64,000 nucleotides of DNA from a candidate division WOR-3 bacterium (GCA_027053075.1 JALUEE010000078.1:32001-96000); one strand, 5' to 3'. Positions 2,408 through 64,000 are shown, counted from the first letter of the stretch. The notes: generated from the sequence alone by a model not told the origin. Made by a program: numbers and translations.

Positions 2408-5400
2408 TTAAAAACCCTTCAATTTGAATTCAAGACCCAAACGTGTCGTTCTACGTGGATAATAAACTGCAGGATTCTTTACCTCACCTTCTGGCATATG
2501 GAACTGCACGTACCAATCAACATTCTCAAAACGATTCAAGTCTTTCCTGTTTGTCACGTTCAACACATCAACGTAGAATCTGAACTTAGCCTTGCCTATC
2601 TCGAAATTCTTGATGAACTTCATATTAAGCTGCATGTGAGATGGCAATCTTGCCGAATTAATCTTTTCAACAGCATCACGTGGTGTTCTAATCGGTGGAG
2701 TATAAGGATAACCACTGCCATAGGTGAACTGGAACATCAAACTGAAGTTATCAAGATACCTGATATTAGCAAGGCTCTTGTTCTTGGGGAAAACTACGCC
2801 AAAATTGGCCACAAGGCTGTGCCTCTGGTCCCAATCAAGTGGAGACTCTTTGTGAGGCAGAGGATAACCTCTCCACATCCAGTCATAAGCATTAAATGGA
2901 GATGAGAAAGAACCATATGCATACTGCAGCGTGTAATCAATTGATAATGTCAGGAAAGGTAGCACCATTCCACCAGGCCTCTTGGAGAAAGAGAATTCGA
3001 TTCCACGAACTGTACCCCAGTCTTCATTTACATAAGTCGAATAATTGGCGCCTGCAATTCCGTATGAGAACTGCTTTAATCTCGACCACTTGAGTATGTC
3101 TTTATAAAACGCTGTCACGTCTACGACCATCTGATTATTTATAGCATGCTTAAGTCCCAGCTCATAAGATATAGTTTTTTCCGGCTCTATATTAGCATTT
3201 CCTACAATAGGGAATGCTCCTGAGAATACATAATTACTCAAAATCTGATAAAATGGAGGTATCTGCAGATAATGACCGTAAGTAAAGTGCAGTACATCCC
3301 TGTCACTGATTGGATGTGATACTCCCAACCTTGGACTTATATACCACTTTGAACCAACCTTAACAGGATTCTTCATCATTCTTATGGTGTGCCACAGTGA
3401 ATCTGATACAAAAGGATCATTACTGTCGGAAATAGCATATCCGCCAGAGTTGTAATAATCAATTCTGAAGCCCACTTTCGCGATCATTCCCTCCATCTCA
3501 ATCTTGTCTCTCAAATAAGCGGCAAATACCCAAGGAACTGCCGGATGATCGTTAAACCAGTTGATAAACGTGTAAGGGTCTCCAGGCCTGGAGGTCAAAT
3601 GAGGATTCAAAAGCGTGAGATACACGTTACCACCCGAGGCATAATCTGCACCGTAACGAGTGATGTTGATTCTCTTATACTCCATCCCTGCGAGGATTTC
3701 ATGGTGTTTCGTAACCTGACTGGTCAACTTTGTTGTGAACGTGAGATAACTACTGTTTCCATAGTACCACTGGCTACGCTGCCACGTGTTCATTCCGGGC
3801 AGATACTGTCCGCCAACTTTCAACAAAGTATCAATCACAGTAACTATACTATCAGTAAACTCATGCCCTTTAAGAGGCCACCTGAATGGGAACTCGTAGA
3901 AATCATTAGATACCTGGAGCACAGTATCGACATAAGTATTACCGGAATCATCCATGGCTTCTACCACGAGCACCTTCAGGTCAACATTTGACCTCTGGCC
4001 CCATCCCTCCGTATTCAAAACACTGAAAATAGTGTCAACTGTGTCACGGAAAATAGGATCGACAATAAACATCTCCTCAGCTTCAGGCCACCACTTGGGA
4101 CCTGAACCTATAGATGGATAAAGGGCCTGTACCTTCGTGTCCCACCAGTAATACGGAATCTCAACATAACCCGCCGACCAGTTAATCTCAGGGTGTACAG
4201 TATCTCCATTGGGAGATACATAACTGTATAGTGAATCAATATTTATCCACTCCCAGTGTGTATGGACTGAGTCTATCCTACCGTGAGTTCTAAATGTATC
4301 AATCACAAGTTTTTTAAAGTAATCAAGGTCTACCTCCACAAAACCATCTTTATCTCGGTCCGCAAAGTCATCCACTCCATCTCTGTCTACATCTTCCATT
4401 ACATTGGACTCAAGCTTTCTGCGGAAGTAACCAAGTCTCAGCTCCCAGTATGTTCTTGATGAAAATATCTTATTGATACCAAAGATAAACTGGAGCTGGT
4501 TATCGTCATTGTATGAAGTGTGATCGAGTGCAAGCCTCCAGTATGGAGAATATCCTCTCGTGTGTGCCTTTGCCCAGAACCCACTTGTAAAGAACTTCCA
4601 GGAAGCGAGGGGATATGTAATCTTCCACTGGAAATTTTTCCTCACATTCCAGAATTTAGGGTCAGGAGATACAGGGAATCTGCCCTTATTGGTCTGATAT
4701 TGCCCAGAAATGAAGAATTTAGCACCACTCCTATTTCTGGGATTTATTGGGCCACCAAAGCTAAACTGAGTGATGTAATCCCTTGAATGATGTCTTCCAA
4801 CAGGACTGTTGAAATCAAGATTCTTACCGGTCAGAAAGTCATAATATTCGTCGCCCCAGTTTCTATCCAGAAAACCGTATATTTTGTCTCCAAGGAAAGA
4901 AAAGTCAGATGTAACGGTCTCAAGTGTGAATCCATATTTAGGACCACCTTCTTTTGTAACAATATTAATAGTACCGGATGAGACCGTTCCCTGATCCACA
5001 TCAAATCCACCTTTCGATATTGATGTTTCTTCGATGGAGAGGAGGGGAATATTCGCAAATGTATTATTACTATAAGGATCGCGAATTTCTACACCATCAA
5101 TAACGTATACCACTTCGTCAGGACGACCACCTCTAACATGAAGACCTCCTCTTGCAATAACTCCGGCCTGCTGGGATACCACCTGAGCAACATTTGTAAC
5201 AGGCAGCTCGGCCAATTGCGAGGATTTTACTATGTCCACACTTGCAGTCAGGTCTTTTTTAATGATGGGTTCCTTTGCAACTGCGACAACCTCTTTTGTC
5301 ACAAGAGTTGCAGGCTCAAGTTTAAAATTGACCTCTGTGGTTCTATCTACATCAACTGTTACATTCTCTACCTTCATCGTTTTGTAACCGATGTAGGAAC

Positions 5401-5623
5401 ACGTCAGGGTATACGTACCAGGAGGCACATTTAAAATAACATAATAGCCATCCTGGTCAGAAGATGCTCCCATTCTCGTCCCCTCTATTATTATGTTAGC
5501 AGCCGGAAGTGGTTCACCAGTATGCTTGTCGGTGACTCTACCGACAATTTTACCAGTAGTTCCGGCTGTGAGGGACGAAAATGCAAATAGGAGCGCCAGC
5601 ACCCACACATTCTTAAGCCTCAT
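2408..5623 (-). CDS. TonB-dependent receptor (carboxypeptidase-regulatory-like N-domain, plug, barrel)
   Basis: GKIVGRVTDKHTGEPLPAANI; plug motif LHVRGGRPDEVVYVIDG; C-terminal RLGLEFKLKGF. Confidence 0.9.
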   Translation of the reverse strand: MRLKNVWVLALLFAFSSLTAGTTGKIVGRVTDKHTGEPLPAANIIIEGTRMGASSDQDGYYVILNVPPGTYTLTCSYIGYKTMKVENVTVDVDRTTEVNFKLEPATLVTKEVVAVAKEPIIKKDLTASVDIVKSSQLAELPVTNVAQVVSQQAGVIARGGLHVRGGRPDEVVYVIDGVEIRDPYSNNTFANIPLLSIEETSISKGGFDVDQGTVSSGTINIVTKEGGPKYGFTLETVTSDFSFLGDKIYGFLDRNWGDEYYDFLTGKNLDFNSPVGRHHSRDYITQFSFGGPINPRNRSGAKFFISGQYQTNKGRFPVSPDPKFWNVRKNFQWKITYPLASWKFFTSGFWAKAHTRGYSPYWRLALDHTSYNDDNQLQFIFGINKIFSSRTYWELRLGYFRRKLESNVMEDVDRDGVDDFADRDKDGFVEVDLDYFKKLVIDTFRTHGRIDSVHTHWEWINIDSLYSYVSPNGDTVHPEINWSAGYVEIPYYWWDTKVQALYPSIGSGPKWWPEAEEMFIVDPIFRDTVDTIFSVLNTEGWGQRSNVDLKVLVVEAMDDSGNTYVDTVLQVSNDFYEFPFRWPLKGHEFTDSIVTVIDTLLKVGGQYLPGMNTWQRSQWYYGNSSYLTFTTKLTSQVTKHHEILAGMEYKRINITRYGADYASGGNVYLTLLNPHLTSRPGDPYTFINWFNDHPAVPWVFAAYLRDKIEMEGMIAKVGFRIDYYNSGGYAISDSNDPFVSDSLWHTIRMMKNPVKVGSKWYISPRLGVSHPISDRDVLHFTYGHYLQIPPFYQILSNYVFSGAFPIVGNANIEPEKTISYELGLKHAINNQMVVDVTAFYKDILKWSRLKQFSYGIAGANYSTYVNEDWGTVRGIEFSFSKRPGGMVLPFLTLSIDYTLQYAYGSFSSPFNAYDWMWRGYPLPHKESPLDWDQRHSLVANFGVVFPKNKSLANIRYLDNFSLMFQFTYGSGYPYTPPIRTPRDAVEKINSARLPSHMQLNMKFIKNFEIGKAKFRFYVDVLNVTNRKDLNRFENVDWYVQFHMPEGEVKNPAVYYPRRTTRLGLEFKLKGF

Positions 5624-5648
5624 ACTTTATACCTCCTATTTTTTCTTA

Positions 5649-6296
5649 TCAATGCTCTAACTTAAATATGAATGGAATTGCGACCCAGACCTTTACTGGT
5701 TTGTCTCTCTGACGACCCGGGGTAAATACAAACTGTTTGGCCGCAGCAATCGCTGGCTTGATAAATATGGGGTTCGTGGCTTTTAAAACAACCACTGAGT
5801 CCACTCTCCCCTGTTCGTTCACAAGCACTTTAACAAAAACTCTTCCCTCAATACCAGCTTTACGTGCAAGCTCAGGGTATTGAGGCTCAACCTGCTTTAC
5901 AACCTTTGGCTTAACTTCTACTGCAAAGAATTCATATGTTTTTTCAACCTTTGGGGGAGGTGGAGCTTCAAGCTCATTAAAGGTTGTGGTGGGAGTAAAT
6001 TCGATCTCTTTCTCTGCTTCCTGCTCTTCTTCATCGGAAACATCATTACTCTCTTTAATTTCAACTGGTAATTTTGGCTTTGGTGGAGGCGGCGGTTCTT
6101 TAATCTCCTCCACCTGTGTATTAACCTGCTCCACGATGGTGGTTATCTCAGATTTGGGTTTATAAGGACTAACCTCTACTTTCTTAACCCCAACAAAAAT
6201 TGCGATAAACATAGCAAGGGTTATACCCACCGCGAGGAGCATATTTGTTCCATACTCTTCTTCGAGAGTCAAATTCTTCTTTTCTTTCTCTGCCAT
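5649..6296 (-). CDS. tonB: Energy transducer TonB
   Basis: N-terminal TM helix, Pro-rich linker, YPELARKAGIEGRVFVKVLV TonB C-domain. Confidence 0.9.
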   Translation of the reverse strand: MAEKEKKNLTLEEEYGTNMLLAVGITLAMFIAIFVGVKKVEVSPYKPKSEITTIVEQVNTQVEEIKEPPPPPKPKLPVEIKESNDVSDEEEQEAEKEIEFTPTTTFNELEAPPPPKVEKTYEFFAVEVKPKVVKQVEPQYPELARKAGIEGRVFVKVLVNEQGRVDSVVVLKATNPIFIKPAIAAAKQFVFTPGRQRDKPVKVWVAIPFIFKLEH

Positions 6297-50321: not shown

Positions 50322-50568
50322 CATTAATAAAAATTTTTGACTAATGGTTATATCTCATAAGTGACCTGGATGTTTTATAGAACTATTCAAAGGTCCCAGA
50401 TTTGAGTACAAAAAGAAATGGATATGTAGATTTTTATGTGTGGATTTTTGATTGGGTTAAAATTTGTCTAATAGTTGTATTTAGTACTTCATTTTGACTC
50501 ATTTCTAAGAACTATTTGAAATGTTTACTATCCGTCCTTTACAATCTCCCAGAACAGGAGTGGTTAGT

Positions 50569-51477
50569 ATGAATTTTGCTGGACTGCCCTTGGGGATCAG
50601 GGAAAAAGTTTTAAGGTGCCTCGAGATGTTTAATAAAGGATTCCCTATTCTAATCAGAGGAGAGACAGGGGTGGGGAAAAGTTTCCTCGCCCGGGAAATT
50701 CATAGAGCATCCAGATGGAAAGATGGAGAATTTGTACGAGTTGATCTTGCATCTCTTGAAAATGACCTCTTTGAATCGCAGCTGTTTGGATACGATAGGG
50801 GAACTTTCACCGGCGGATTAATCGAAGGTAAAGTAGGACTGCTCGATCTGGCGCAGGGTGGAACTGTTTTCTTTGATGAAATTGGGAATCTGGACCTCCG
50901 ATACCAGAAAAAGTTGCTTATTTTCCTGGACGAGAGGAGATACAGAAGGGTGGGAGGTAAAAATTATATCCATCTAAACGCAGGTATAATTTTTGCGACA
51001 AACATATATATAAAGGGTGCCCTGACCGAGGGGAAATTGAGGGAAGACCTGTACCACAGGATTAAAACATGTGAGATAGAACTGCCTCCTCTTCGGGCAA
51101 GACTCTTTGTGTTAGAGGAAATCATAGAGTTATTGATAAAGATTAAGAATCTCAAACCATTGAAGTTTACCCCGGATGCAATCGAAAAGATGAAAGAGTA
51201 TTCCTGGCCCGGCAATTTGAGGGAGCTATTGAATTTTCTTGTGGAATTGAACTCATTGGGGAAGCATACAATAGAGATATCAGACCTACCAGAGAACGTA
51301 AGGAATCACAATAAAGCGGATAGCAATGGAAGGATTAGACCTGAGCTGATAATAAATGAGCTGAGTAAAACAGGAGGGAATGTAAAAGAAACGGCAAGCC
51401 GGCTGGGGGTTTCGAGGCAATACCTATATAAGATGTTCCGCGCTTACAGGATAAATCCCGCGGATTATAGACGGTAA
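50569..51477 (+). CDS. Sigma-54-interaction-domain activator (bEBP) with Fis HTH but no N-terminal sensor domain
   Basis: GETGVGKS; ESQLFGYDRGTFTGG (GAFTGA variant); FFDEIG; WPGNLREL; GNVKETASRLGVSRQYLY. Confidence 0.85.
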   Translation: MNFAGLPLGIREKVLRCLEMFNKGFPILIRGETGVGKSFLAREIHRASRWKDGEFVRVDLASLENDLFESQLFGYDRGTFTGGLIEGKVGLLDLAQGGTVFFDEIGNLDLRYQKKLLIFLDERRYRRVGGKNYIHLNAGIIFATNIYIKGALTEGKLREDLYHRIKTCEIELPPLRARLFVLEEIIELLIKIKNLKPLKFTPDAIEKMKEYSWPGNLRELLNFLVELNSLGKHTIEISDLPENVRNHNKADSNGRIRPELIINELSKTGGNVKETASRLGVSRQYLYKMFRAYRINPADYRR

Positions 51478-51554
51478 GTTTTTATTTTTATTTATGAAGA
51501 ATTCTCTTCCGGACACGATGGAGCCGGAGGCTGCCAAAATTTTGCGATTAAAAG

Positions 51555-51616
51555 GTGTAAACAGGGTAGTTGACACAGCAAAACCCGCATGAAGACTGAG
51601 AAAATTCCACAAATAG
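51555..51616. promoter_or_regulatory. Duplicated regulatory segment with palindrome (copy 1)
   Basis: GTGTAAACAGGGTAGTTGACACAGCAAAACCCGCATGAA... is nearly identical to 58471-58533. Confidence 0.75.
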
Positions 51617-51698: not shown

Positions 51699-52658
51699 AT
51701 GGATATTGTTGTCAGTGTAAAAAATCTGGAAAAAGTATATAAGAGGCAGCGTCGAGAATCTGGTCTAAAGAACGTAATAAAGGATTTTTTTAGAAGGCAA
51801 TATACACAGATACAAGCGCTTAAAAAAGTAAGTTTTACTGTAAGAAAAGGAGAAATCATAGGTTATATCGGACCCAACGGAGCAGGTAAAACTACTACCC
51901 TAAAAATACTATCGGGTATACTTTATCCATCTGGAGGGGATGTGGAGGTTCTTGGTTTTACTCCCTGGAAACGTAAAAGGGAGTTTCTGAAAAAAATAAC
52001 CCTTATAATGGGACAAAAAAATCAATTATGGTGGGATATTCCGGCAATGGATAGTTTTTTACTCTTCAAAGAGATATATGAGGTACCTGATCATATTTTC
52101 AAAAAGCAAATTAATACTTTATTGGATATGCTTGATGCTGGAAAACTTGTCAATTATCCTGTCAGACATCTTTCTATGGGAGAGAGGATGAAGATGGAGA
52201 TTGTTGCCGCTTTAATTCATAACCCGGACATAATATTTCTTGACGAACCGACTATTGGACTGGACGTGATGTCTCAAACTTCTATAAGAGAGTTTTTATC
52301 CGCTTATAACAAGGAATTTCAGAAAACCATAATCCTGACAAGTTACTACATGAAGGATATTGAAGAATTATCCAATAGGGTGATCTTTATAATGAATGGA
52401 GAAATTATTTATGATGGATCTATAGATAAATTAATCTCCAGAACTCTTTCTCACGAATATGTTGAAGTAACGTTTGGTACAGGTAAAGGATTTGTGAAAA
52501 AATCTTATAAAGTTAAAAAAGAAGAAATGCCAGATTTTCTAAGGAAAATTTTAACAAGTAACAACGGTTCTATAGTTGAGATTAGGCATAGAAAACCTGA
52601 CCTTGAAGAAGTTGCTCGTATTATTATGGCCTCTAAGGGGATTAAGAAAGATGAGTAA
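51699..52658 (+). CDS. ABC transporter ATP-binding protein (switch His replaced by Tyr)
   Basis: GPNGAGKTT, LSMGERMK, FLDEPTIGLD; LTSYYM where LTSHYM is usual. Confidence 0.9.
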   Translation: MDIVVSVKNLEKVYKRQRRESGLKNVIKDFFRRQYTQIQALKKVSFTVRKGEIIGYIGPNGAGKTTTLKILSGILYPSGGDVEVLGFTPWKRKREFLKKITLIMGQKNQLWWDIPAMDSFLLFKEIYEVPDHIFKKQINTLLDMLDAGKLVNYPVRHLSMGERMKMEIVAALIHNPDIIFLDEPTIGLDVMSQTSIREFLSAYNKEFQKTIILTSYYMKDIEELSNRVIFIMNGEIIYDGSIDKLISRTLSHEYVEVTFGTGKGFVKKSYKVKKEEMPDFLRKILTSNNGSIVEIRHRKPDLEEVARIIMASKGIKKDE

Positions 52659-53433
52659 ATATGTGAGATTAATTTACAATTCTATGGCGGAAACCCTAAC
52701 TTATAGAGCAAATCTTGTTATCAGTTTTGCTGTTATAGCTATTCCTTTTATTATCGCTGTTATTTTCTGGAGGGGAGTATTCTTTGCCAATAATTCTGTA
52801 GCAGATTACTCGCTTAAAGACATAATCACTTATTATTTTATAGTATTGTTTGCGCAGGATTTTACCTACCCTGTGTTAAATTATGATATTGTTATGGATA
52901 TTAAAAACGGGCGGTTAAATTTTTTACTGATAAAACCTGTTAATTATTTCTGGTATACATTTTTCTTAAGACTCGGGAGTAATATAGTTTATTTGAGTGT
53001 TGTCACGGCTTTTTTGATAATATATGTACTCATTTTCGCTAAGTTTCTGATACTGAATCCAAATAAGATACCCGCATTTCTATTATCTTTTTTGCTTTCT
53101 TACATATTAGGTGCACTTATTAGTTTCTTTTTTAGTATTTTTACTCTGTTTTTAGAAAACTTTGCAGGGCTTGAAAGTTTTGTAAACTTTATTGTTCCAG
53201 TTTTTTCTGGAATTTTGTTACCAATTAGTATGCTCCCGGGTTTATTATATAAGATATCCTTATACTTGCCCTTGAGATTACTTGTTTTTTATCCAGTAGA
53301 GATATATCTCGGAAAGAAAGATCTGAATAAAGGTATAATATATTCGTACCTTTTTTGGATATTGCTTTTCGCTATAATCAATTTATTTGTCTGGAGGGAG
53401 GGTTTAAAAAAATATAGAGCAGTGGGTGGATAA
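52651..53433 (+). CDS. ABC-2 family permease
   Basis: TYRAN, DIKNGRLNFLLIKPV, FSGILLPI, YPVEIYLG, C-terminal GLKKYRAVGG. Confidence 0.85.
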   Translation: MSKYVRLIYNSMAETLTYRANLVISFAVIAIPFIIAVIFWRGVFFANNSVADYSLKDIITYYFIVLFAQDFTYPVLNYDIVMDIKNGRLNFLLIKPVNYFWYTFFLRLGSNIVYLSVVTAFLIIYVLIFAKFLILNPNKIPAFLLSFLLSYILGALISFFFSIFTLFLENFAGLESFVNFIVPVFSGILLPISMLPGLLYKISLYLPLRLLVFYPVEIYLGKKDLNKGIIYSYLFWILLFAIINLFVWREGLKKYRAVGG

Positions 53434-53436
53434 CAG

Positions 53437-54225
53437 ATGAGGAAGTATCTAAAAATATTCAAATTACAACTGGTAAATCAAATTGTATCCTACAGTATTT
53501 TTAAGGGCGACGCTATTCTGCTTATAGTATCTGATACTTTTGGGCTGATTTTTTCGGTGATATTTTTCAAAGCACTTTACAACAACATAGATTCTATTGG
53601 TAGCTGGAACTATGAATCAACACTTTTATTGGTAGGTATTGCAAATTTTGCGGATTCTTTTTATAGGTTATTATTTGAGAAAAATGTGCGAAGGATTTCT
53701 GCTTTTGTAAGAAAAGGTACATTGGATTACGCGCTAATTAAGCCTATTGATGTACAATTTTTTCTTAGTATAGGAAGATTCAAATTCCAGACTTTATCTT
53801 CCCTGCTTTTCTCGATTTTGGTTATCCTTCACGCTATGAAATTATTACAACTTACAATTAATGTTTTTAACGTAATTGTATTTATCATTCTTTTGATAAC
53901 AGGTGTGTCTTTGCGTTATATATTCAGTTTATATTCTTCTATCATTTCTTTTTACACTACCAGAGTTTCTGCTTTCTATTCTTTACAAATGGAGATTTTC
54001 AAATACGCTGAATATCCCTTTGATGTGTTTAGAGGATTAATTGAAAGGATATTTTTCACGTTTATATTTCCAATTGTAATAATTGCCAATGCCCCGGCTA
54101 TAGTTATTATACAAAATAGAAACTATTGGGTGATTTTAAGCGTCTTTATCAGTGTAGTACACTTCTATTTATCTCGAATTTTGCTTTTTGCTTCAATAAA
54201 TAAATACCAGAGTGCAGGAGGTTGA
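53437..54225 (+). CDS. ABC-2 family permease
   Basis: IGSW, VRKGTLDYALIKPID, YPFDVF, C-terminal YQSAGG. Confidence 0.85.
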   Translation: MRKYLKIFKLQLVNQIVSYSIFKGDAILLIVSDTFGLIFSVIFFKALYNNIDSIGSWNYESTLLLVGIANFADSFYRLLFEKNVRRISAFVRKGTLDYALIKPIDVQFFLSIGRFKFQTLSSLLFSILVILHAMKLLQLTINVFNVIVFIILLITGVSLRYIFSLYSSIISFYTTRVSAFYSLQMEIFKYAEYPFDVFRGLIERIFFTFIFPIVIIANAPAIVIIQNRNYWVILSVFISVVHFYLSRILLFASINKYQSAGG

Positions 54226-54226
54226 T

Positions 54227-56089
54227 ATGTTTGTGTTGTTGATCATTGCGCTAAGCTTTAACAATTTTCACCGTTTCTTCCCGAATAGTGGGGAAATGAT
54301 GGAAAACCGGACATTTGCGACTGTGGAACTGGTTAATGACACACTCGTGATTAATGCAAAATGCCACTCTAAGTATGGAATTTACACGGAATCTCTTGAC
54401 AGGGATGAAATAAAGCCCGGTGAAGATTTCTTCGGTATTGTAATCACACAGGACAGGAATACGGGTTATTTCTTCCTGATAAATGCAAATGGTATAAAAA
54501 GCGACGGAGTAATCGTCCATAAAAGCACAAAAAGAAAAGCCTGGGATTATGTCTGGAATGTGAGCTCAAAGAGGTTTGATGATTCTTTATGGGTTGCAAA
54601 TGTCAGGATTCCTCTTGATCGACTAAACCTTGAATACAAAGACAGTCTCATCCTGTACGTCAACCTCGTCAGGAGCGCAAAGCTCGGAGGCGTAGGCAGG
54701 TATGAGTCAGGGACTTATGTGCCCATTGTGGGCTCAAACTTCTATGATCTCACTTTTACTCAGAGGGTTGCTCTCCCGGTTGAGAAGAGAAAAGCAGGGA
54801 CAAAGTTATTTATTGAGCCCTATGTGGCGGTTTACCGTGACAGTGGAGGTGTTTTCTTTAAAGAAGGGGAGGACATAACTTTAAAGAATCAGACTGGAGA
54901 GCTTGCGATAACAGTGAATCCGGACTACGCAACAGTGGAAAGTGATGTGGAACGATTTAATCTCGACAAATTACAGATGCTCTACTATCCGGAAAAGCGT
55001 CCCTTTTTCATGCATGGTTTTGAGCTATGGAACCTGCCCTTTATGGTACTTTACACGAGGAGCCTGACGGAGATAGATGCAGGGGTAAAGGCAAATGTTA
55101 AGAGAGAAAATATGAGCTTCAATGCATTCCTTATTGAGGAAGGGGACACACTGTCAGGCTATTTTAGAAGGAAACGTCTCACCGGTGGAGTCAGGGGATT
55201 ATACTCAACCGAATACGGGGACTTTGGGCTCTTTTATCTAAGTAGCAGGGACAGTTTTGAAGCAAAAGGTCTTGATGCAATGTTTTACCTTCCCTTTCAG
55301 CTCAGAGTAAATATGCAATATACACTGGACCGTTCGTCAAAGAGTGATTTCTTTTTACACATTTACCGGTTTGTTGAATCCGGAGTGGATGTGGAAGCCG
55401 GGTTGGAGAGACTTGATAGTGTGAGAATAAATACAGCTTACATACCATATCCCTTATACACTCGCTCCGCATGGCTTTATCTCACCTACAATTTTTCAAG
55501 GGATAGCAAAATCTTACCCAATGGCTACTTAAGTATAGGTGGGACACATGGAGAATACCTAAACGGAAAACTCTATGAAAATAGTGGTTCAATAGTGGCC
55601 TCAGCTGGAATTCTCAGTAATCTACGGGTGGTATATAACCTTATACCCTAGAGAAGGAACGCTGGCAATACGATATATGATAACTTGTTGCATTACTTTG
55701 AGATAGACTACCAGCCCCTGACACATCACTACATTGAAATTGAGACACAGTTTGGTCGTTACTTTGGAGGGGTCCAAAAATACTACTCTGCAGAATATTC
55801 GTACAAAGGTGAAAAGCTCTTGCTCGCATCTGGATACGGCTACGACAGCGAGCCTTTTTACACGCAGAAGCGCATATATTTGAAGGCAAAATACAATCTT
55901 ACCAATGACTTAAGGGCAAGACTCTTTGTGCAGCATTCTGAGATTTCAAAAAGGAATGAGGTAAACTTTTTGACGGAATACCGCATAAAGCCTGGAACTT
56001 TCCTTTATTTTGTGATAAACAGGACCGAAATAAATGGCTCCCCGCAGGTTAATTTCATGGTTAAGTTTAAAAGTTATGTGGGGATATAG
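54227..56089 (+). pseudogene. DUF5916-family outer-membrane protein interrupted by a single in-frame TAG at 55649-55651
   Basis: VNPDYATVESD...YYPEKRPFF...LYTR; ORFs 54212-55651 and 55685-56089 share a frame with open codons between (P*RRNAGNTIYDNLL); joined length about 620 aa vs the 644-aa paralog at 42322-44256. Confidence 0.7.
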
Positions 56090-56306: not shown

Positions 56307-56424
56307 AGATTCTTAAAAAATTTAAAAGTGCATCATTTAATCGGTTTTAGTATAATAAAATGTGTGGTTCCACATTCACCATGGTAAATTTGATTTAAGT
56401 CGATATTAATTCCCTGGGGGATTT

Positions 56425-58368
56425 ATGGTGCTGATACTTTTATTGGCAGGAATTTTGGTTAGAGTAAATGTTGTTGATTCTTCGTTGAGGCATATAAAAG
56501 ATGCTGAGATAGTGATAAAATCCGATGGAGAGGTTAAGAGGGTGGGGGAGGGCGACTTCGTCGCCCTCCCCCACCCTCTTAATATTTTCTACATCTCCGC
56601 TCCCGGCTGGCACTCCATTCAGGATACACTCTACCTGACCAAAGACACCACTCTAACCTTCATCCTTACCCCAATCGAATACAAAACTGAAGAAGTTGAA
56701 GTTATCTCTTCACCATTACCATCAGGAGATGTGAAAATTAAGAGAGAATCTATTATTGAAACACCATCTCCCATAGCTCCTGATCCCTTAAGGCCCATAT
56801 TGAATCTACCGTTTGTTGAGCCTGGAAATGAGCTCTTACCTTTTTCATTCTATGTAAAAGGTGCTGTACCAGGTGAAAACTCTGCCTTTATCGAAGGTTA
56901 CCCCCTTGTTTTCCCTTTCCATTTTGGCTTTACAACCGCTGTTCCTGTCTATTCTTTAAAATCTTATGACTTTTACACGGTCTATATTCCACCTGAACTT
57001 TCCCTGAAGGTGTCTTCGGCCATCAATTTTCATTTAAGGAATGATAGGACAGATGAACTCTTTGTTGATCCAACCTCATCTATCAATTTTGTCCATTCGA
57101 GAAAGGACTTTTTAGCTTCAATAAGATTCACATCCATGTCGCTTCCGGTCTATTTAATGACCAAAAATATTCTCTACTATTTTGGAGATGTTATCGGGAG
57201 ATTTCGCAATTTCATTTCATATATTTCCTATGACTTTGCACGGGACAGTGTTACTGATATGATAGAGTGGGATTTTCTAAATTTTATGTCAGGAATGAGG
57301 ATTGGTGAGTGTAGGGTGTATTTTAGCAGCGGTATTTATCATTTGAAATATCTGGATACAGGTGAAAAGGATGCTTCCAGCTCAGAAAGCTTTGGGATTG
57401 TGGGAAAAGCTCCATTTTCTCTTGGCTTCCATTTTAGATTTTTGAAAATTGATGCAAATTCGAAATACTTCCCGTGGATGAACGGCAGCTATAGGGTTTT
57501 TGAAGGCCAAATCTGGAGAGGAATGAAGTTTGGTGGCTTTCGTATTACACCTATGTTCAAGATAATAAAAAATGGGAGGTGGAAGATTGACCTCATGCCT
57601 CAATTTGGATTTGGATACCTGTGGAGAAGATATTATTTGAGAATCACATCTGGTGCCAATTCACAGGTGGAATCTTCACCTAATAGCGGATGGTTAGGTG
57701 TGGCCAATAAAATGACAAAAAATTATTATTTGCAGGCTGAATCCGGTGGAGAAAAAGTTACATTTGGTGGATTTGTAAGATATTATCCCCATGAGTATTA
57801 CATAGCCGAGCTTGCAAGGGTAGATACTGTTATCAGCAGTAGTGACACCCTATGGAACCTAATTCCATACGATTCACTTTTCCATGTAAGGAAATTTGCC
57901 GCAGGTGCTTATGTCTCGTTTTCTTTCGGAAAGCAATTCTGGCGATTGAGTGGAGATGTGGGTATTTTGAAAGGATTTGAGAGCACGGGAAAAACAAAGT
58001 TTCCACTCCCATACACTCCGGAAATTTCAATTAAACTCATGCCATCTCTTAGATGGGGTAAGAACGTGATTGATGTTCCCATTTACTTTAAGAGTGGAAT
58101 TAAGATTCCTGAGTTTTATGGTGACACCGATATTGGACCTATAGTATATGAGAAGCCCAGGACTATTAATTCAAAGGTTTACCTCAGGGTAGATGTAAGC
58201 TGGGCACACAGGTTTCACTTCCTGGGCTCAGAGAGCAGGTTTGTTCTTGGAATATTTAATCTAATTGGTATTAAGCCCGACATTGGATTTGAACCGGGCG
58301 AGGATAAATTTGTAAGAATTCCCATCCCCTCAGCAGGTGTGTGGATAAAATTTACTAAGAATTATTGA
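56425..58368 (+). CDS. Divergent TonB-dependent receptor-like outer-membrane protein
   Basis: N-terminal carboxypeptidase-regulatory-like segment; plug-like DPLR..LNLP.V...FYVKGAVPGENSAFIEG; YLRVDVS...IFNL...IPIPSAGVWIKF C-terminus. Confidence 0.6.
   Translation: MVLILLLAGILVRVNVVDSSLRHIKDAEIVIKSDGEVKRVGEGDFVALPHPLNIFYISAPGWHSIQDTLYLTKDTTLTFILTPIEYKTEEVEVISSPLPSGDVKIKRESIIETPSPIAPDPLRPILNLPFVEPGNELLPFSFYVKGAVPGENSAFIEGYPLVFPFHFGFTTAVPVYSLKSYDFYTVYIPPELSLKVSSAINFHLRNDRTDELFVDPTSSINFVHSRKDFLASIRFTSMSLPVYLMTKNILYYFGDVIGRFRNFISYISYDFARDSVTDMIEWDFLNFMSGMRIGECRVYFSSGIYHLKYLDTGEKDASSSESFGIVGKAPFSLGFHFRFLKIDANSKYFPWMNGSYRVFEGQIWRGMKFGGFRITPMFKIIKNGRWKIDLMPQFGFGYLWRRYYLRITSGANSQVESSPNSGWLGVANKMTKNYYLQAESGGEKVTFGGFVRYYPHEYYIAELARVDTVISSSDTLWNLIPYDSLFHVRKFAAGAYVSFSFGKQFWRLSGDVGILKGFESTGKTKFPLPYTPEISIKLMPSLRWGKNVIDVPIYFKSGIKIPEFYGDTDIGPIVYEKPRTINSKVYLRVDVSWAHRFHFLGSESRFVLGIFNLIGIKPDIGFEPGEDKFVRIPIPSAGVWIKFTKNY
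56534..56582. repeat. Perfect 23-bp-stem triloop hairpin inside the receptor-like CDS
   Basis: TTAAGAGGGTGGGGGAGGGCGAC-TTC-GTCGCCCTCCCCCACCCTCTTAA, read as KRVGEGDFVALPHPL. Confidence 0.85.
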
Positions 58369-58470
58369 TCAATGTAATTATATCATGCATCGTGACTTTC
58401 CTGAAATTCCAGACTCAAATTTATCAAAAGGGGCACAAATTCGAAACGAGTTTATACATGTTCCACAGAA

Positions 58471-58635
58471 GTGTAAACAAGGTAGTTGACACAGCAAAAC
58501 CCGCATGAATACTGGGAATATCCCACTAAATAGTACAAAAGTACTGTAAACAATTAGTTGACACACATAAGTTGTGATACTATCAACACTTACAACATTT
58601 AAAAGCAAACCAGTGTAAACTAATTAGTTTACACT
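58471..58635. promoter_or_regulatory. Three TGTAAAC-N5/6-GTT(G/T)ACA palindromes (candidate bEBP enhancer sites)
   Basis: 58471-58492 GTGTAAACAAGGTAGTTGACAC; 58545-58563 TGTAAACAATTAGTTGACA; 58612-58635 perfect AGTGTAAACTAATTAGTTTACACT. Confidence 0.75.
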
Positions 58636-58707
58636 TTGCATTGAACCTCATAAATGCAAGAGACGAAAATCCTCTATATTACTATACTTTACGTTTCGTT
58701 ATTTCTA

Positions 58708-58723
58708 CGGAAGAAAAATTGCT
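58708..58723 (+). promoter_or_regulatory. Candidate sigma-54 promoter for the precursor-lanKC operon
   Basis: CGGAAGAAAAATTGCT: GG (58709-10)-N10-GC (58721-22) with TTGCT -12 box, 53 nt before the precursor ATG. Confidence 0.6.
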
Positions 58724-58776
58724 ATTAAATAATAATGGTAGCGCGCTATCGAAAAACTTAAAAAGGAGGTAAAGCT

Positions 58777-58914
58777 ATGTATAGAGTGCTATCACTGCAA
58801 AGAATGGGAACGAGAGTAATGAATGACGATAATGGCGGGTGTCACGGAAGCTGTATGAGTTATCTCTTCTGTTCAACTCTGAGTATAGGTTGTGGACGGG
58901 GACGTGGAAAGTAA
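58777..58914 (+). CDS. Class III lanthipeptide precursor A1, 45 aa (not in ORF track)
   Basis: AAGGAGGT RBS; MYRVLSLQRMGTRVMNDDNGGCHGSCMSYLFCSTLSIGCGRGRGK; VLSLQ leader, SCMSYLFC and STLSIGC motifs; directly upstream of lanKC. Confidence 0.9.
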   Translation: MYRVLSLQRMGTRVMNDDNGGCHGSCMSYLFCSTLSIGCGRGRGK

Positions 58915-58917
58915 AAA

Positions 58918-58954
58918 TATGGTGCCGAGCACCCTGCGGGTGCTCGGCACCATA
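58918..58954. terminator. 17-bp-stem hairpin between precursor A1 and lanKC
   Basis: TATGGTGCCGAGCACCC-TGC-GGGTGCTCGGCACCATA; no U-tract on the + strand. Confidence 0.7.
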
Positions 58955-58974
58955 AAAACCTGACTAAAGCTACC

Positions 58975-61575
58975 ATGTACGAACAGATTGACCTTTTTCA
59001 GTTTATTATTCTGAATAGTGATTTTTATATTCCTATTGACTATATTGAGTGCGGAGAAAATTACAAACAGATTGTTAAATCTCATCTAAAACTGGGATGG
59101 CATTTAGAAGATCAGGGTATCTGGACCTTCGTATTTAACGAAGCGAATGAGTTCCCCGAGCAGGGCTGGAAAATTCATATATCAGCTATTCCCCAAAATG
59201 CCGGAGAAATCCTGCAAAAGACAGTTCCAATCCTTGTTTCAAATAAGGTAAACTTCAAATTTGCCTGTAATGAATTTGTGCTAACTCTCTTGAACTCCAA
59301 AAATTGGAGTCGAGGAGGGAGTGGAAAGTTCATTACTATCTATCCCCCTGAGAGATTATTCAAGCCACTTATCCAGGAACTTTACAACGAATTACACAGT
59401 TATATGGGCCCCTATATTCTGTCAGATATGAGATATAGAGACGCTAAGGTGATTTACTATCGTTATGGTGGATTTCAGCCGATGGAAAAGTTGACGGTCG
59501 AGGGATACAAAATTTCGCTTATCAAAACTCCCGAAGGAGAATTCATACAGGACAATAGACCTCCATTCTATAATCCTCCACCATGGGTAAAAGACCCTTT
59601 TGGTCAAGAGCCCAGGTATGAGGAGAATATTCTCCTGAATAATAGGTATAAAGTCCTATTCCCCATCTCGTTTTCCAATTCAGGAGGTGTATATAAAGCA
59701 GTTGATACTTTTAATAATCAGGAGGTTATCCTTAAAGAGGCAAGGCCGTTTGTTAACCTTCAGGAGAATATATCCGCAAAGGACCTTCTTGAAAAAGAAT
59801 TTGAAATCCTCAAAAGAATCGAGGACCTTGGTATAGCTCCAAAACCGATTTCGTATTTTAAAGAATGGGAACATTTCTTCCTTGTTGAGGAATTTATTAA
59901 GGGGATGGATTTGAGAGAATATGTTGTCGTTAATTCTCCCATATTGAAAACCAATCCAGAGTTTGAAGACTACAAAAATTATTTCCGGTCGTATCGGAAG
60001 ATATTTCTTAATCTCATTGACTCTATCGAGAAATTGCACAGTAGGGGAATTATTTTCAGGGATCTATCACATAATAACATCATTATTCAGGATGACCTTA
60101 GTGTTAAGTTGATAGATTTTGAGAGTGCCTATCTGATGGGAAGTGACAGGTGGATTCAAATTTTCACTCCAGGGTTTGCCTCTCCCAACCAGATATTGAA
60201 TGAAATGCCAGAATTTTCTGACGATATCTATTCAATTGGTGAAAACATGATGGCCGCGATATTCCCCATAAATCAATTTTTCTCACTTGCTCCCGATGCA
60301 CGCGATAGATATTTGAAGGACATTATTGTTGATATGAATTTCCCAACAAAATTAAAGAAAATAATCAGTATCAGCACCAGTGGAGATGACCGCGTTGATT
60401 TGAGGTTTCTAAAATCCAGTTTGAGAAAACTTCGATTCCCTAAGCCTTTTAAAAGACAAACAAGCGTACTTACAGATGCAGAGATAAACAGGATAATAAA
60501 GGGTATAAGGAAGTACCTTTTCAATTCCAACAAGTGGGAAAGGGAATTGGGAGCTCCGTTTCCTCTTTACGCTGAAGCATACATGACAAATATTTACAGT
60601 GTTGCTTATGGTATTAGCGGGATTTTGCTGTCTATGCTGAAATGTGGCTTTTCACCACACAAAAAGCAACTTGAGTGGTTTGTAAATCAGGATTTTGATG
60701 AGAGAGACATTCCACCTGGCCTTTATATTGGGCTTAGTGGGATTGCATGGACACTTCTGGAATTAGGGCACGAAGAGCTTGGAATTAAAGTATTCGATAA
60801 AGCCTTATCCCATCCCCTTGTATCGGATTCAGTTGATATGTTTTACGGTATGGCAGGAATTGGAATCACCAGCCTTCAGTTTTATCACAAATTCAAGGAG
60901 GACATTTATCTTTCCCACGCGGTGCAACTTTCAGAGATGATTTCCAATAAGCTTGAGGAGGCTGACAATTCACTATATTTCAAGGGAACAGATGGTGATG
61001 TTCATTACGGATATGCACATGGTGCTTCAGGTGTCGCACTTTTCATGCTTTACTTATATTTAGCAACAAGAGATGAAAGATTTTTAAACCTATCTCAAAG
61101 GCTCATGGATTTTGACCTCTCTCATGCTGTTGATTACAAAGATGCAATTTCATGGCATCCATCTAAGGAGCACAGTTCCACTGTAATGCCATACGTAAAG
61201 TATGGAACCTCTGGAATTATTTCTGTGTTGCTCAGAATTAATCAGGTAACTCCTTTCAAGCAAGAATATATACACAAAGGTTTACAAGATATAACAAGAA
61301 AGTATGCCATATTCCCTGGACAACTTAATGGATTATCCGGAATGGGAGAGACTATAATCGACGCGATGCCTTTTAAGGGAAACCTTGATAACCATCTCCA
61401 AAGGCTAATAAAAGGTGTGTCTTTGTTTATGATAAAAAGACCCGAAGGCATCACTTTCCCTTCAGACGGACTATTTCGCATAAGCTGTGATTACGGTACA
61501 GGGTGCAGCGGAATTATGTCTTTTCTTTGCAGGACTATTAATAGGGATAAACGGTTGCTCTTTGATCTCGAATGA
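58975..61575 (+). CDS. lanKC: Class III lanthipeptide synthetase (lyase-kinase-cyclase)
   Basis: Lyase QGWKIHISA, RGGSGKFITIYP, GPYILSD, YYRYGGF; kinase SNSGGVY, LKEARP, FRDLSHNN, LIDFE; cyclase GxxG repeats without a recognisable Zn-ligand set; RISCDYGTG. Confidence 0.95.
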   Translation: MYEQIDLFQFIILNSDFYIPIDYIECGENYKQIVKSHLKLGWHLEDQGIWTFVFNEANEFPEQGWKIHISAIPQNAGEILQKTVPILVSNKVNFKFACNEFVLTLLNSKNWSRGGSGKFITIYPPERLFKPLIQELYNELHSYMGPYILSDMRYRDAKVIYYRYGGFQPMEKLTVEGYKISLIKTPEGEFIQDNRPPFYNPPPWVKDPFGQEPRYEENILLNNRYKVLFPISFSNSGGVYKAVDTFNNQEVILKEARPFVNLQENISAKDLLEKEFEILKRIEDLGIAPKPISYFKEWEHFFLVEEFIKGMDLREYVVVNSPILKTNPEFEDYKNYFRSYRKIFLNLIDSIEKLHSRGIIFRDLSHNNIIIQDDLSVKLIDFESAYLMGSDRWIQIFTPGFASPNQILNEMPEFSDDIYSIGENMMAAIFPINQFFSLAPDARDRYLKDIIVDMNFPTKLKKIISISTSGDDRVDLRFLKSSLRKLRFPKPFKRQTSVLTDAEINRIIKGIRKYLFNSNKWERELGAPFPLYAEAYMTNIYSVAYGISGILLSMLKCGFSPHKKQLEWFVNQDFDERDIPPGLYIGLSGIAWTLLELGHEELGIKVFDKALSHPLVSDSVDMFYGMAGIGITSLQFYHKFKEDIYLSHAVQLSEMISNKLEEADNSLYFKGTDGDVHYGYAHGASGVALFMLYLYLATRDERFLNLSQRLMDFDLSHAVDYKDAISWHPSKEHSSTVMPYVKYGTSGIISVLLRINQVTPFKQEYIHKGLQDITRKYAIFPGQLNGLSGMGETIIDAMPFKGNLDNHLQRLIKGVSLFMIKRPEGITFPSDGLFRISCDYGTGCSGIMSFLCRTINRDKRLLFDLE

Positions 61576-63080
61576 AAAGATTGTATAGCATAATAAAACC
61601 TTTTGAGAGAGGATTTTGGGGACTTGTCCTGTATTCTCTAATTTTAAACATCTTTACTCTTTCAAATCCTCTTGTCTTAAAGTTCATATTTGACGAGGGT
61701 ATCAAAGGGAAAAACCTTAGACTGTTTATTTTACTGGTTTCTATATTCATTTTTGTCTCGATATTCTGGAGAGTTTTAAATTACCATTACTCTTTGCTTC
61801 TGGAAAAATTCAAAATACGGGTTACAAAATACTGGCTTAAGAATACGATAAATGCTTTTCTAAAGAGGCCCTACAAAGAAATAATCACAAAAGATTCCGG
61901 ATATTATCTCTCGAGAATTTATGAAGAACCTGAATCACTGAGTAATGAGCTTGTTTCCGGTGCTATTGATGCTATAAATCTGGGGATTGGCTTGATTTTA
62001 TCCCTGGCACTCCTGTTGTATTTTTCTGTCTATGCTACCCTCATCCTTTTTCTGATTATTCCCGTGACATATTTTTTGTCCTCTTATTTTTCGCAAAAAA
62101 TTAAAGAATATACTGACAAGGAGCGAGAGAGTGAAGCTAAATTAAGAGAAACGATAACTGATGTAATACGGTCTGTTAAGTTTATAAAATCTTTCCAGTT
62201 TCATGATTTTATAGTCGGCAAGTTTATAGACAGATTGTCTAAATTCTTATCCATCTACTTAAAAAATTTCGAATATGCTACGGGTTTTGATACGCTAAGC
62301 TCTATATTTTTGTCTCTTTCTGAACTATCGGTGATTATAGTTAGTGGCTATTTAATGATAATCGATAAAATGACGTTTGGTAGCTTCATGGGATTTATGA
62401 ACACTTTCTGGGGGTTTATTGGTGCAGTCCAGAGATTTATAGGAATAATCCCGGAAATCGCTGGGGCAATGGCTATTTATGATAGGCTTGAAAACTTTAT
62501 AAACGTGCAAAATGGCCGAGCGGTGCAGTTTGGTGAAAAAATTATTTTGAAAAATGTAAGTTTCTCTTACGATGGGAAATCTCGGGTGTTAGACAATTTC
62601 TCACTGATTATTAATCCTGGTGAGAAAATCCTCATACTTGGAGAGAATGGCAGCGGAAAAACCACCCTTGCCAATATAATCTCTGGACTAATAATACCTG
62701 AGGGGCAGGTCACCCTTCTCAAGAAAGTAAGCTTGATGCCAGATAATCTCCCCTCATTAAGACTTCGCGAGTACGCTGTTCTGGACGAAAGAAATAAGTT
62801 TTTTGAGTTAATAAAGCTTTTTCAGTTAGAGGATTACCTTGATAAGACACCAGGGGAGCTCTCTATGGGCCAGAGGAAGAAGTTCACAATCACACTTACC
62901 CTTATAAGAGATGCTGATATCTATATTTTTGATGAGCCACTTGTAAATCTCGATAGTTTGAGTAAAAATTTAGCAATGGATTTGATTTTTGAAAATACTT
63001 ATCGCAAAACACTTATCATAATAAGCCACAATTCTATTAAGAATAGATTTGATAGGGTTATAAAACTTGAGAGGAGGTAA
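61572..63080 (+). CDS. ABC exporter, fused permease plus ATPase (LanT-like, no C39 peptidase domain)
   Basis: N-terminal TM domain; GENGSGKTT, LSMGQRKK, IFDEP, ISH; ATGA overlap with lanKC. Confidence 0.88.
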   Translation: MKRLYSIIKPFERGFWGLVLYSLILNIFTLSNPLVLKFIFDEGIKGKNLRLFILLVSIFIFVSIFWRVLNYHYSLLLEKFKIRVTKYWLKNTINAFLKRPYKEIITKDSGYYLSRIYEEPESLSNELVSGAIDAINLGIGLILSLALLLYFSVYATLILFLIIPVTYFLSSYFSQKIKEYTDKERESEAKLRETITDVIRSVKFIKSFQFHDFIVGKFIDRLSKFLSIYLKNFEYATGFDTLSSIFLSLSELSVIIVSGYLMIIDKMTFGSFMGFMNTFWGFIGAVQRFIGIIPEIAGAMAIYDRLENFINVQNGRAVQFGEKIILKNVSFSYDGKSRVLDNFSLIINPGEKILILGENGSGKTTLANIISGLIIPEGQVTLLKKVSLMPDNLPSLRLREYAVLDERNKFFELIKLFQLEDYLDKTPGELSMGQRKKFTITLTLIRDADIYIFDEPLVNLDSLSKNLAMDLIFENTYRKTLIIISHNSIKNRFDRVIKLERR

Positions 63081-63084
63081 AATT

Positions 63085-63264
63085 ATGTGGCAGGTCCTCA
63101 GTCTCCAGATTCTGGGGATGCAAAGCAAGGATAAAACAAAAGGGAAAAGTACCATGAGCTACTCTTTCTGCTCGCTCCTCAGTCTTGGATGTGAAACCAG
63201 CAAGAAAGGCAAAAAGAAACGCAGGATTAATTTAAAAAGTTCACTTAGTATAAAATGCGGATAG
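63085..63264 (+). CDS. Class III lanthipeptide precursor A2, 59 aa
   Basis: GAGGAGGT RBS; MWQVLSLQILGMQSKDKTKGKSTMSYSFCSLLSLGCETSKKGKKKRRINLKSSLSIKCG; VLSLQ leader and three SxxSx(2-3)C motifs. Confidence 0.88.
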   Translation: MWQVLSLQILGMQSKDKTKGKSTMSYSFCSLLSLGCETSKKGKKKRRINLKSSLSIKCG

Positions 63265-63274
63265 GGGGTGAAAA

Positions 63275-64000
63275 ATGAAGCTAATTCTTCTATATCTCCT
63301 TATAAACTATGGAGCTGTTAAAGGTAAGGTGCTCGAAAAGGGCACATCAAGGCCCGTTGAGTATGCAGTTGTCGTTGTCTTCGATAAAAGTGGTAAGCAG
63401 GCAGGTGGGACTTATGCGGATTCCACAGGTGAATTTTTGGTTGAGAGGTTAAAACCCGGGAAATACTATGCCACAGTGGATTTTATAGGCTACCAGAAGG
63501 CCCGAACTGACACGTTTACCATTAAGGATGGAGATGTGAAAGACCTCGGGGTTATTTATCTTTCACCCAGCTATATTAAAACTTCCCCGGTTAAGGCAAC
63601 GGCAAAAGCCCCAAGGGTTAGAAGAGAGGTTGACAGGACAATTGTCACCCCTTCACAGGATGTGATTTCATCAGGTGGGAATGCGAGTGATGTGTTACGA
63701 AATGTTCCTGGTGTCTCCGTTAGTATCACAGGTGAGGTCCTTATTAAAAACAGCAAAAATTACACAGTCCTTATCAACAATAAGCCCACATTACTCGAAC
63801 CTTCTCAGGTGTTGAAAGAAATTCCCGCATCCCAGATTGAAAGGATTGAGATAATAACCAATCCTTCTGCCGAGTATGACCCTGAGAGTAATGCTATCGT
63901 CAATATTGTGCTGAAAAAGTCCACATACAAGGTGGAGAACAGCTTTTCACTGAGATTCGGCACATTTTCTAATTATGGTGTGTCTTTCACTTTAGGTGCT
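63275..64000 (+). CDS. TonB-dependent receptor, 5' part (runs off window end; not in ORF track)
   Basis: Manual translation: GAVKGKVLEKGTSRPVEYAVV...GGNASDVLRNVPGVSV...LKEIPASQIERIEIITNPSAEYD...IVNIVLKK plug motifs. Confidence 0.88.
   Translation, partial: MKLILLYLLINYGAVKGKVLEKGTSRPVEYAVVVVFDKSGKQAGGTYADSTGEFLVERLKPGKYYATVDFIGYQKARTDTFTIKDGDVKDLGVIYLSPSYIKTSPVKATAKAPRVRREVDRTIVTPSQDVISSGGNASDVLRNVPGVSVSITGEVLIKNSKNYTVLINNKPTLLEPSQVLKEIPASQIERIEIITNPSAEYDPESNAIVNIVLKKSTYKVENSFSLRFGTFSNYGVSFTLGA

Follow-up and report, generated by a model that had tools for sequence, protein, structure and literature searches.

How does a bacterium with two membranes move a class III lanthipeptide across the outer one, and in which direction? 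The question is raised by a locus in a 64,000-nucleotide (nt) stretch of DNA from a candidate division WOR-3 bacterium (the window, G000:C78:32001-96000, where G000 is the source genome). Here, genes for two precursor peptides, A1 and A2, for the synthetase LanKC and for an ATP-binding cassette (ABC) exporter adjoin the gene of an outer-membrane protein resembling TonB-dependent transporters. We read this locus as a working class III lanthipeptide operon whose products would leave the cell in two steps, through the ABC exporter and then through an outer-membrane gate, and we give this reading a rough probability of 0.45.

A class III synthetase in a five-gene operon

A first-pass annotation, made from the sequence alone, had proposed a co-oriented, tightly spaced cluster. 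All five genes were found again, close-set on the plus strand and at or near the coordinates given there:

58777-58914, plus strand: precursor A1, 45 amino acids (aa), with a VLSLQ leader and a core of SxxSxxxC then SxxSxxC
58918-58954, plus strand: 17-base-pair GC-rich hairpin between A1 and lanKC (-35.1 kcal/mol, z -7.3), missed in the first pass
58975-61575, plus strand: class III lanthionine synthetase LanKC (lyase-kinase-cyclase), 866 aa
61572-63080, plus strand: LanT-type ABC exporter, a half transporter of 502 aa with ABC_membrane and ABC_tran domains, overlapping the LanKC stop by 4 nt
63085-63264, plus strand: precursor A2, 59 aa, with a VLSLQ leader, the double motif, a Lys/Arg-rich linker and a third motif, KSSLSIKC
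63275-64000, and on to window-equivalent position 65533, plus strand: TonB-dependent-transporter-like outer-membrane protein, 752 aa

LanKC carries, in order, the Pfam domains RamC_N (PF25816, E = 5.9e-59, residues 33-216), Pkinase (PF00069, E = 1e-18, residues 236-428) and LANC_like (PF05147, E = 1.8e-21, residues 616-859). It passes the class III equivalog model NF038151 (691.2 bits, cut-off 575) and fails the class IV model NF038150 (485.2 bits, cut-off 650), in line with the initial assignment of a class III cluster with two precursors. Its cyclase part (residues 520-866) contains only four cysteines, C557, C838, C844 and C852; the 'YGTSG' repeat is without Cys and 'GTGCSG' without a Cys-His pair, the consensus of the family alignment at these positions being Ser. 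According to the available text of PMC8341899, class III cyclase domains lack the Cys-Cys-His zinc site of classes I, II and IV. Since that arrangement is missing at the GxxG repeats, LanKC fits the class III definition given there. Solved LanKC enzymes (PDB 8sao/8sap/8sam, 9wj0, 9ugq SalKC and 8w7a) are homologous over the full length, with lyase, kinase and cyclase, but their sequence relationship to the window enzyme is distant (best match 8sao, E = 3.7e-82; range to about 1e-58). The nearest public proteins, at 96%, 57% and then at most 44% identity, are uncharacterised and metagenomic. No obvious Shine-Dalgarno sequence precedes lanKC.

LanKC is found in 16 of the 272 genomes of the phylum, G000 counted. 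In two of these loci, L114 (G003; 511 + 386 aa) and L115 (G114; 228 + 705 aa), lanKC lies in two open frames, which could reflect a real split, a frameshift or an assembly error. The ABC exporter has no C39 peptidase domain, and its homologues lie directly 3' of LanKC in many phyla.

A conserved pair of precursors

A1 (MYRVLSLQRMGTRVMNDDNGGCHGSCMSYLFCSTLSIGCGRGRGK) has a strong Shine-Dalgarno sequence, AAGGAGGT, 6 nt 5' of its ATG. For A2 (MWQVLSLQILGMQSKDKTKGKSTMSYSFCSLLSLGCETSKKGKKKRRINLKSSLSIKCG), the likeliest start is the ATG at 63085, which is preceded at 6 nt by an equally clear one, GGAGGT; a less likely start is the TTG at 63067 given in the open reading frame (ORF) list. The common VLSLQ leader and the aligned cores, SCMSYLFCSTLSIGC in A1 and STMSYSFCSLLSLGC in A2, proved exact to the letter. 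The third A2 motif, overlooked in the first pass, is conserved as KSSLSxxC. In the accessible part of Walker et al. (PMC7268733), the hallmarks of class III precursors are an LxLQ leader and an Sx2Sx3C core. Both window peptides have an LxLQ-type leader and Sx2Sx2-5C units, two in A1 and three in A2. When 12 precursors from six loci are aligned, M1, L5, L7, Q8, S22, S25, C29, S30 and S33 prove invariant, and this conservation excludes a chance origin of the motifs.

The first pass had inferred an undescribed peptide family, and the scores of the precursors agree with this. A1 matches the SapB/AmfS model NF033212 weakly (17.7 bits, cut-off 25) and A2 the lanthi_III_b model NF038159 weakly (21.1 bits, cut-off 30), so that both stay under the curated class III cut-offs and neither is a member. 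Relatives of A2 were sought by motif search and by profile. Run against 1.84 billion representatives, the profile, built from the 12 precursor relatives, retrieved no more than 14 proteins at E <= 0.001. Seven of these are clear members of the family, A2 itself included; because small genes are under-called, this count is a lower bound.

Short and long precursor types occur together in G000, G075/L003, G056, G058 and G065 (the last more diverged), that is, in at least five lineages of the Hydrothermia class. Among the best 80 loci of a metagenome scan, the only additions were variants of the G075 type and of the G056 type. In G039, which shares its genus with G000, the long type stands alone. 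Its locus L101 carries, 5' of lanKC at 850-1250, in the A1 position, several GC-rich hairpin repeats and two direct repeats of about 34 nt, about 70 nt apart, which may be small mobile or repeat elements that replaced A1. A two-component lantibiotic was considered and not adopted, each locus having a single LanKC and G039 having the long precursor only. Metal binding through the extra Cys-His of A1 (GGCHG) was likewise set aside, as this feature is not conserved in other A1-type peptides.

All five loci examined have a GC-rich hairpin 3' of the A1-type gene, strong in the window (z -7.3), in L102 (z -5.9) and in L003 (z -5.1), and small and non-significant in L004 and L103. Its probable function is to end, stabilise or attenuate the transcript and thereby set the ratio of precursor to enzyme.

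The transporter gene travels with the ABC exporter gene

The protein encoded last in the operon has CarboxypepD_reg, Plug and OMP_b-brl_3/TonB_dep_Rec beta-barrel domains, and its AlphaFold model is a plugged barrel (predicted local distance difference test, pLDDT, 86.9). Orthologues lie on the same strand directly 3' of LanKC-ABC in G039 (55% identity), G075/L003 (37-38%), G056 (31%), G058 (30%) and G062 (28%, with precursors quite different from A1 and A2), several of them overlapping the ABC gene by 4 nt. Being conserved, this linkage is very likely functional, and it strengthens the earlier call of a co-oriented TonB-dependent receptor.

Among the 13 readable genomes of the phylum, six have the transporter after LanKC-ABC. 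Five others carry a DUF5916-like protein of about 650 aa beside LanKC-ABC, just 3' of the ABC gene in G224, G114 and G049, in the gap between precursors and LanKC in G065, and upstream in G003. The remaining two, G071 and G069, have neither next to LanKC, and have separate ABC-transporter pairs elsewhere. When 80 LanKC loci from other taxa were inspected, the transporter was present in two, L003 and L004, both of the Hydrothermia group. These two are also the nearest loci that bear a name: L004 lies on a contig titled Candidatus Hydrothermia and coincides in its coordinates with G056:C1, from a genome of the G000 class. The L003 contig is titled uncultured Candidatus Saccharibacteria and has the same operon as G075, outer-membrane transporter included; as such a transporter is unexpected for Saccharibacteria, L003 is probably mis-binned or mislabelled.

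Transporters of the same subfamily also follow LanT-like ABC genes that adjoin radical S-adenosylmethionine (radical-SAM) genes (L112) or a DUF5916-like gene (L111), or that stand alone (L130, L132-L134). The pairing is thus with the ABC exporter and not with LanKC. In line with this, a quick maximum-likelihood tree (30 transporters, all of one phylum; a careful search is unfinished) has its 14 ABC-linked sequences set apart from the 16 unlinked ones by one branch (Shimodaira-Hasegawa-like approximate likelihood ratio test, 83); within the ABC-linked set, two fully supported subgroups each mix LanKC-linked and other members. In L112 (G076:C324), ABC exporter and radical-SAM genes lie to either side of the transporter, and this locus is probably another modified-peptide cluster with the same outer-membrane partner. 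No small precursor-like ORF was seen upstream of the stand-alone pairs L130 and L134.

Proposed export through an outer-membrane gate

In the route that we propose, LanKC would recognise the VLSLQ leader of A1 and A2, phosphorylate the motif serines and eliminate the phosphate to give dehydroalanines, and then turn every SxxSx(2-3)C unit into a ring system of labionin or lanthionine, of which A1 would hold two and A2 three. The LanT-type exporter would carry the peptides over the inner membrane, the leader would be trimmed by peptidases encoded elsewhere in the genome, and the presumably co-transcribed TonB-dependent-transporter-like protein would act as a dedicated outer-membrane gate, working outward as the second export step. 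Direct contact between exporter and transporter across the periplasm is not part of this proposal. The sequence data establish the genes present, their families, the conserved precursor pair, the conserved exporter-transporter pairing and the common operator; ring chemistry, transport direction and the part played by the ABC-2 pump are inferred from them. The lack of a leader protease gene, first remarked for the window, extends from the cluster to the end of the contig, 11.6 kb past the window. Elsewhere in G000, one M1 peptidase and one clear S9 peptidase are leader-trimming candidates only.

The gene neighbourhoods lean slightly to export over the role of signal or imported effector that had been suggested for the peptide. 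The conserved partner of the transporter is an exporter-type ABC protein, which LanKC clusters of many phyla possess without any receptor. No importer, binding protein, anti-sigma or signalling gene is present in the conserved module. In sister clusters, the place of the transporter is taken by an unrelated protein, the DUF5916-like one. In four of eight inspected LanKC loci from other diderm phyla (Proteobacteria, Acidobacteria), genes for MacB-type pumps lie 3' of the LanT gene. Makarova and colleagues (PMC8939145, in the text available) predict that PF14905/TonB-related proteins next to Bacteroidetes graspetide loci mediate export.

Several observations weigh against an outward gate. To our knowledge, every characterised TonB-dependent transporter imports. 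The model of the window protein matches the importers PhuR, PfeA, FepA, OprC and Cir in Foldseek (probability 1.00, template modelling score 0.6-0.7). Its V-x-A/V-x-A segment aligns with the EVVV-type TonB-box segment of its relatives and is conserved, though degenerate here and poorly modelled (residues 103-110, pLDDT < 50), and G000 has three TonB_C matches. In the transporter tree, support for the branch that sets the ABC-linked sequences apart is only moderate, the groups are defined by a neighbour feature and the entries are related genomes. As for the proteins found in place of the transporter, the DUF5916-like protein is at most a candidate outer-membrane barrel, its model (pLDDT 51.7) being too poor for a fold search, and the MacB-type pumps of other phyla could serve immunity instead of export. 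A further point against the outward gate comes from a deletion in a sister species, which leaves a 'receiver'-like genotype.

A natural deletion and the case for re-uptake

The genome of this sister species, G037 (L110), has lost exactly window positions 58359-63037, that is, A1, lanKC and most of the ABC gene (4.68 kb). Its contig matches the window at 56404-58358, then at 63038-64000 and onward. What remains of the ABC gene is its final ~43 nt, whereas A2 (with 1 aa changed) and the transporter (97% identity) are intact. These remnants identify it as a deletion derivative that lost synthetase and exporter and kept a peptide gene and the gate. In the public run X11, two contigs bridge the deletion junction and others cover lanKC; in run X2, one loose end has the junction letters. 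G037 is also without the IS4 transposase that G000 has 3' of a PorV-like gene (window-equivalent about 67137-68985), a copy much GC-richer than its surroundings.

Such a genotype invites a reading in which the transporter serves the uptake of mature peptide, as a receptor powered by TonB. The peptide would be secreted and then retaken, whether as a signal, as a carrier of metal or nutrients or as some other shared good, and strains that have lost LanKC and the ABC exporter would exploit the producers. The fold and domains of importers, the conserved TonB-box-like segment and the TonB_C matches all speak for it, as do the retention of A2 and the transporter in G037 and the presence of junction and LanKC contigs in a single run. 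There is precedent as well, as the clusters for methanobactin and for some lasso peptides include TonB-dependent receptors of the peptide that they make. However, the transporter is conserved next to an exporter-type ABC protein, with no importer, binding protein or signalling partner conserved alongside. It is also replaced by DUF5916-like proteins in sister clusters and by MacB-type pumps in other phyla, and such unrelated replacements fit a generic need for transit better than specific recognition. The deletion is recent, its flanks being 92-95% identical in DNA, so that retention of the two genes need not reflect selection. Finally, the junction contigs were matched at 90% likeness over 37-letter sides and may therefore belong to another strain or species. 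We regard re-uptake as the main rival of export, and as less probable than it.

Probable co-regulation, an ABC-2 operon and the possibility of envelope protection

Regulation probably links the lan operon to genes upstream of it:

50521-51477, plus strand: sigma-54 activator with AAA+ and HTH_8 domains and no receiver domain (Pfam Sigma54_activat, E = 2.1e-48)
51551-51610, plus strand: promoter/operator module, almost the same as the one 5' of A1; its palindrome, TGTAAAC-N6-GTTGACA, lies at 51556-51575
51699-54225, plus strand: ABC-2 type transporter, with ATPase (51699-52658) and two permeases (52576-53433 and 53437-54225); Pfam ABC_tran, and ABC2_membrane_6 twice
58467-58636, plus strand: regulatory region of the lan operon, with operator-like palindromes at 58472-58491, 58545-58563 and 58614-58633, about 70 nt apart, missed in the first pass

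The pattern TGTAAAC-N4-6-GTTKACA has five matches at four sites of the window (one site being read on both strands), with 0 expected from 100 shuffles. Three of these sites lie 5' of A1 and the fourth between the sigma-54 activator gene and the ABC-2 operon. The first palindrome on the A1 side overlaps a TTGACA-N16-AATACT promoter-like site at about 58486-58513, and about 60 nt around this box and the ABC-2 box are nearly identical, the TTGACA-N16 promoter-like site included. This duplicated module indicates that the lan and ABC-2 operons are probably co-regulated. On another contig of the genome (G000:C4:41586-41654), two more inverted operator half-sites, TAGTTGACAC and TAGTTTACAC, lie about 50 nt apart and are a possible third target of the same regulator.

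By contrast with these palindromes, the sigma-54 control first suggested for the lan locus did not hold up. Sites were judged as -24/-12 elements, GG-N10-GC in the context TGGCAC-N5-TTGC, together with an activator. The only GG-N10-GC site before A1 matches 8 of 12 consensus positions, and sites as good number 49 in the window on both strands. No such site precedes A2, and upstream of the ABC-2 operon the best one reaches 4 of 12. The activator encoded 7.3 kb upstream is nonetheless a possible regulator of the cluster. G000 has rpoN, sigma-54 activator genes adjoin the LanKC clusters of G224 and G039, and the one in G039 is a fragment homologous to the window activator, 650 nt upstream of lanKC. 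In L108, L114 and L113 (G224, G003 and G120), short LanKC precursors with a single motif have canonical TGGCACG-N4-TTGC sites 120-394 nt upstream, so that, with such sites at more distant LanKC clusters of the phylum, the sigma-54 idea is not absurd.

Lantibiotic immunity pumps of the LanFEG type have one ATPase and two permeases. Its matching layout makes the ABC-2 transporter a candidate self-protection system, and by this analogy it is probably a self-protection or accessory pump. One may then ask whether the outer-membrane transporter, alone or with the ABC-2 pump and a PorV-like protein, shields the envelope of the producer from a cationic, membrane-active peptide. The strongly basic A2 linker, the immunity-type layout of the ABC-2 operon with an operator in common with the lan operon, and a PorV/PorQ-like gene 3' of the transporter (86 bits against a cut-off of 90) are consistent with this idea. 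Against it, no known immunity mechanism involves a TonB-dependent transporter, the PorV-like gene and an upstream gene for a 647-aa protein are conserved only within the genus, and characterised class III peptides are often weak antibiotics or none. We hold envelope protection to be improbable. Still less probable is a nutrient receptor of the usual kind, carried along with the ABC gene but uninvolved in peptide biology: related transporters (~30% identity) are common, 120 of the 272 phylum genomes having a match at E <= 1e-30, mostly away from LanKC, but even in lineages whose LanKC are only 37-58% identical the two genes adjoin on one strand, often with stop and start overlapping, and the pairing recurs beside other peptide-modifying genes.

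Neighbouring genes and host

The remaining genes around the operon are the following:

54212-55651 and 55685-56089, plus strand: DUF5916-like protein in two frames, 479 + 134 aa (relatives ~650 aa)
56425-58368, plus strand: 647-aa protein of no known family, kept only within the genus and 91% identical in G037
3' of the transporter gene, beyond the window: PorV/PorQ-like protein, the below-cut-off match mentioned above
After the PorV/PorQ-like gene, to the end of the contig: IS4-type transposase, DUF5916-like protein, ABC-2 transporter and FG-GAP protein

The split DUF5916-like gene upstream may be frameshifted or decaying. The 647-aa protein has no Pfam or NCBIfam match. Far upstream, at 2408-6296 on the minus strand, a gene for a 1071-aa SusC-like TonB-dependent receptor adjoins a TonB gene; this is an ordinary uptake pair, and the cluster-linked transporter is shorter.

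The host had been described as a probably thermophilic Gram-negative bacterium, and this description fits. G000 is a diderm of the WOR-3/Hydrothermia lineage, and GTDB puts it in one class with a record titled Candidatus Hydrothermia; the NCBI taxonomy places Candidatus Hydrothermia in Caldifarciminia, phylum Caldifarciminota, which we take to be the former WOR-3. Its tRNA GC content is 64%, against 44% for the genome, and its IVYWREL fraction is 0.424, a value that the regression of Zeldovich et al. 2007 reportedly converts to about 62 C; by composition, the host thus fits a moderate thermophile. Near-identical or related DNA was found in runs from four studies that bear the label hydrothermal vent metagenome; one of them is possibly the source of G000 itself.

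Relation to known systems

Genomic LanKC matches in diderm metagenome bins are abundant (1,696), so that class III synthetases in Gram-negative bacteria are not new at the genomic level. In the text available of PMC7268733, the class III lanthipeptides that have been characterised are actinobacterial, clusters being predicted in Firmicutes as well, and actinobacterial class III clusters are usually without a protease.

The labyrinthopeptin genes comprise labKC, labA1/labA2 and labT1/T2. Labyrinthopeptin-type clusters of Actinobacteria resemble the window operon in having one LanKC for two precursors, an LxLQ-type leader, consecutive SxxSxxxC-type core units, a dedicated ABC exporter and no cluster protease. 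They differ from it in several respects, as the window host is a diderm of an uncultured thermophilic phylum, its precursors fall below curated cut-offs, A2 has a basic linker and a third ring motif, and the operon includes an outer-membrane transporter gene. The SapB/AmfS (ram/amf) clusters of Streptomyces share the RamC-type N-terminal domain and the weak, below-cut-off match of A1; unlike them, the window locus shows no sign of a developmental role, and envelope and regulation differ.

Closer in layout are two kinds of Bacteroidetes loci in which a peptide-modifying enzyme, an ABC exporter and a TonB-type protein are co-located: graspetide loci with PF14905/SusC-like genes (PMC8939145) and the itf cluster of Bacteroides thetaiotaomicron, a cluster for a peptide made by the ribosome and modified after translation, with the ABC/C39 protein ItfE and the TonB-dependent transporter ItfF (PMC11002830). 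These differ from the window in chemistry (ATP-grasp, radical SAM/YcaO) and phylum. Export is a prediction for the graspetide loci, and in the accessible text of both sources no experiment on what the transporter does is described. Uptake of noursin is reported in the available part of PMC13688881 as TonB-independent accumulation. The LanKC clusters L009, L025, L030 and L033 of Proteobacteria and Acidobacteria are alike in that LanKC and a LanT-type ABC gene are followed by a second envelope transport component. That component is a MacB/FtsX inner-membrane pump and not a cluster-encoded outer-membrane barrel; MacB/FtsX pumps work through TolC. In open-access papers and preprints, we found no report of a LanKC cluster with a TonB-type transporter or of lanthipeptides in WOR-3.

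Implications

Three features make this locus more than routine: an exporter-transporter module common to other peptide pathways, the replacement of the transporter by other envelope proteins in sister clusters, and a natural receiver-only deletion. A broader proposition, which we put forward tentatively, is that a LanT-type ABC exporter and a dedicated TonB-dependent-transporter-like subfamily may form an unrecognised outer-membrane route for modified peptides in WOR-3 and FCB-type bacteria, either outward or as secretion and recapture, with producers and receiver-only genotypes in the wild. The compact, conserved and thermophile-derived LanKC with its two short substrates is attractive for enzymology and peptide engineering. 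The exporter-transporter pair, recurring with lanthipeptide and radical-SAM genes and replaced in sister clusters, offers a genetic handle on the outer-membrane step, and the natural deletion variant could reveal whether the peptide acts as a shared good. The locus thus bears on how two-membrane bacteria release or retake class III peptides and, if transport is outward, the protein would be the first TonB-type gate used for secretion.

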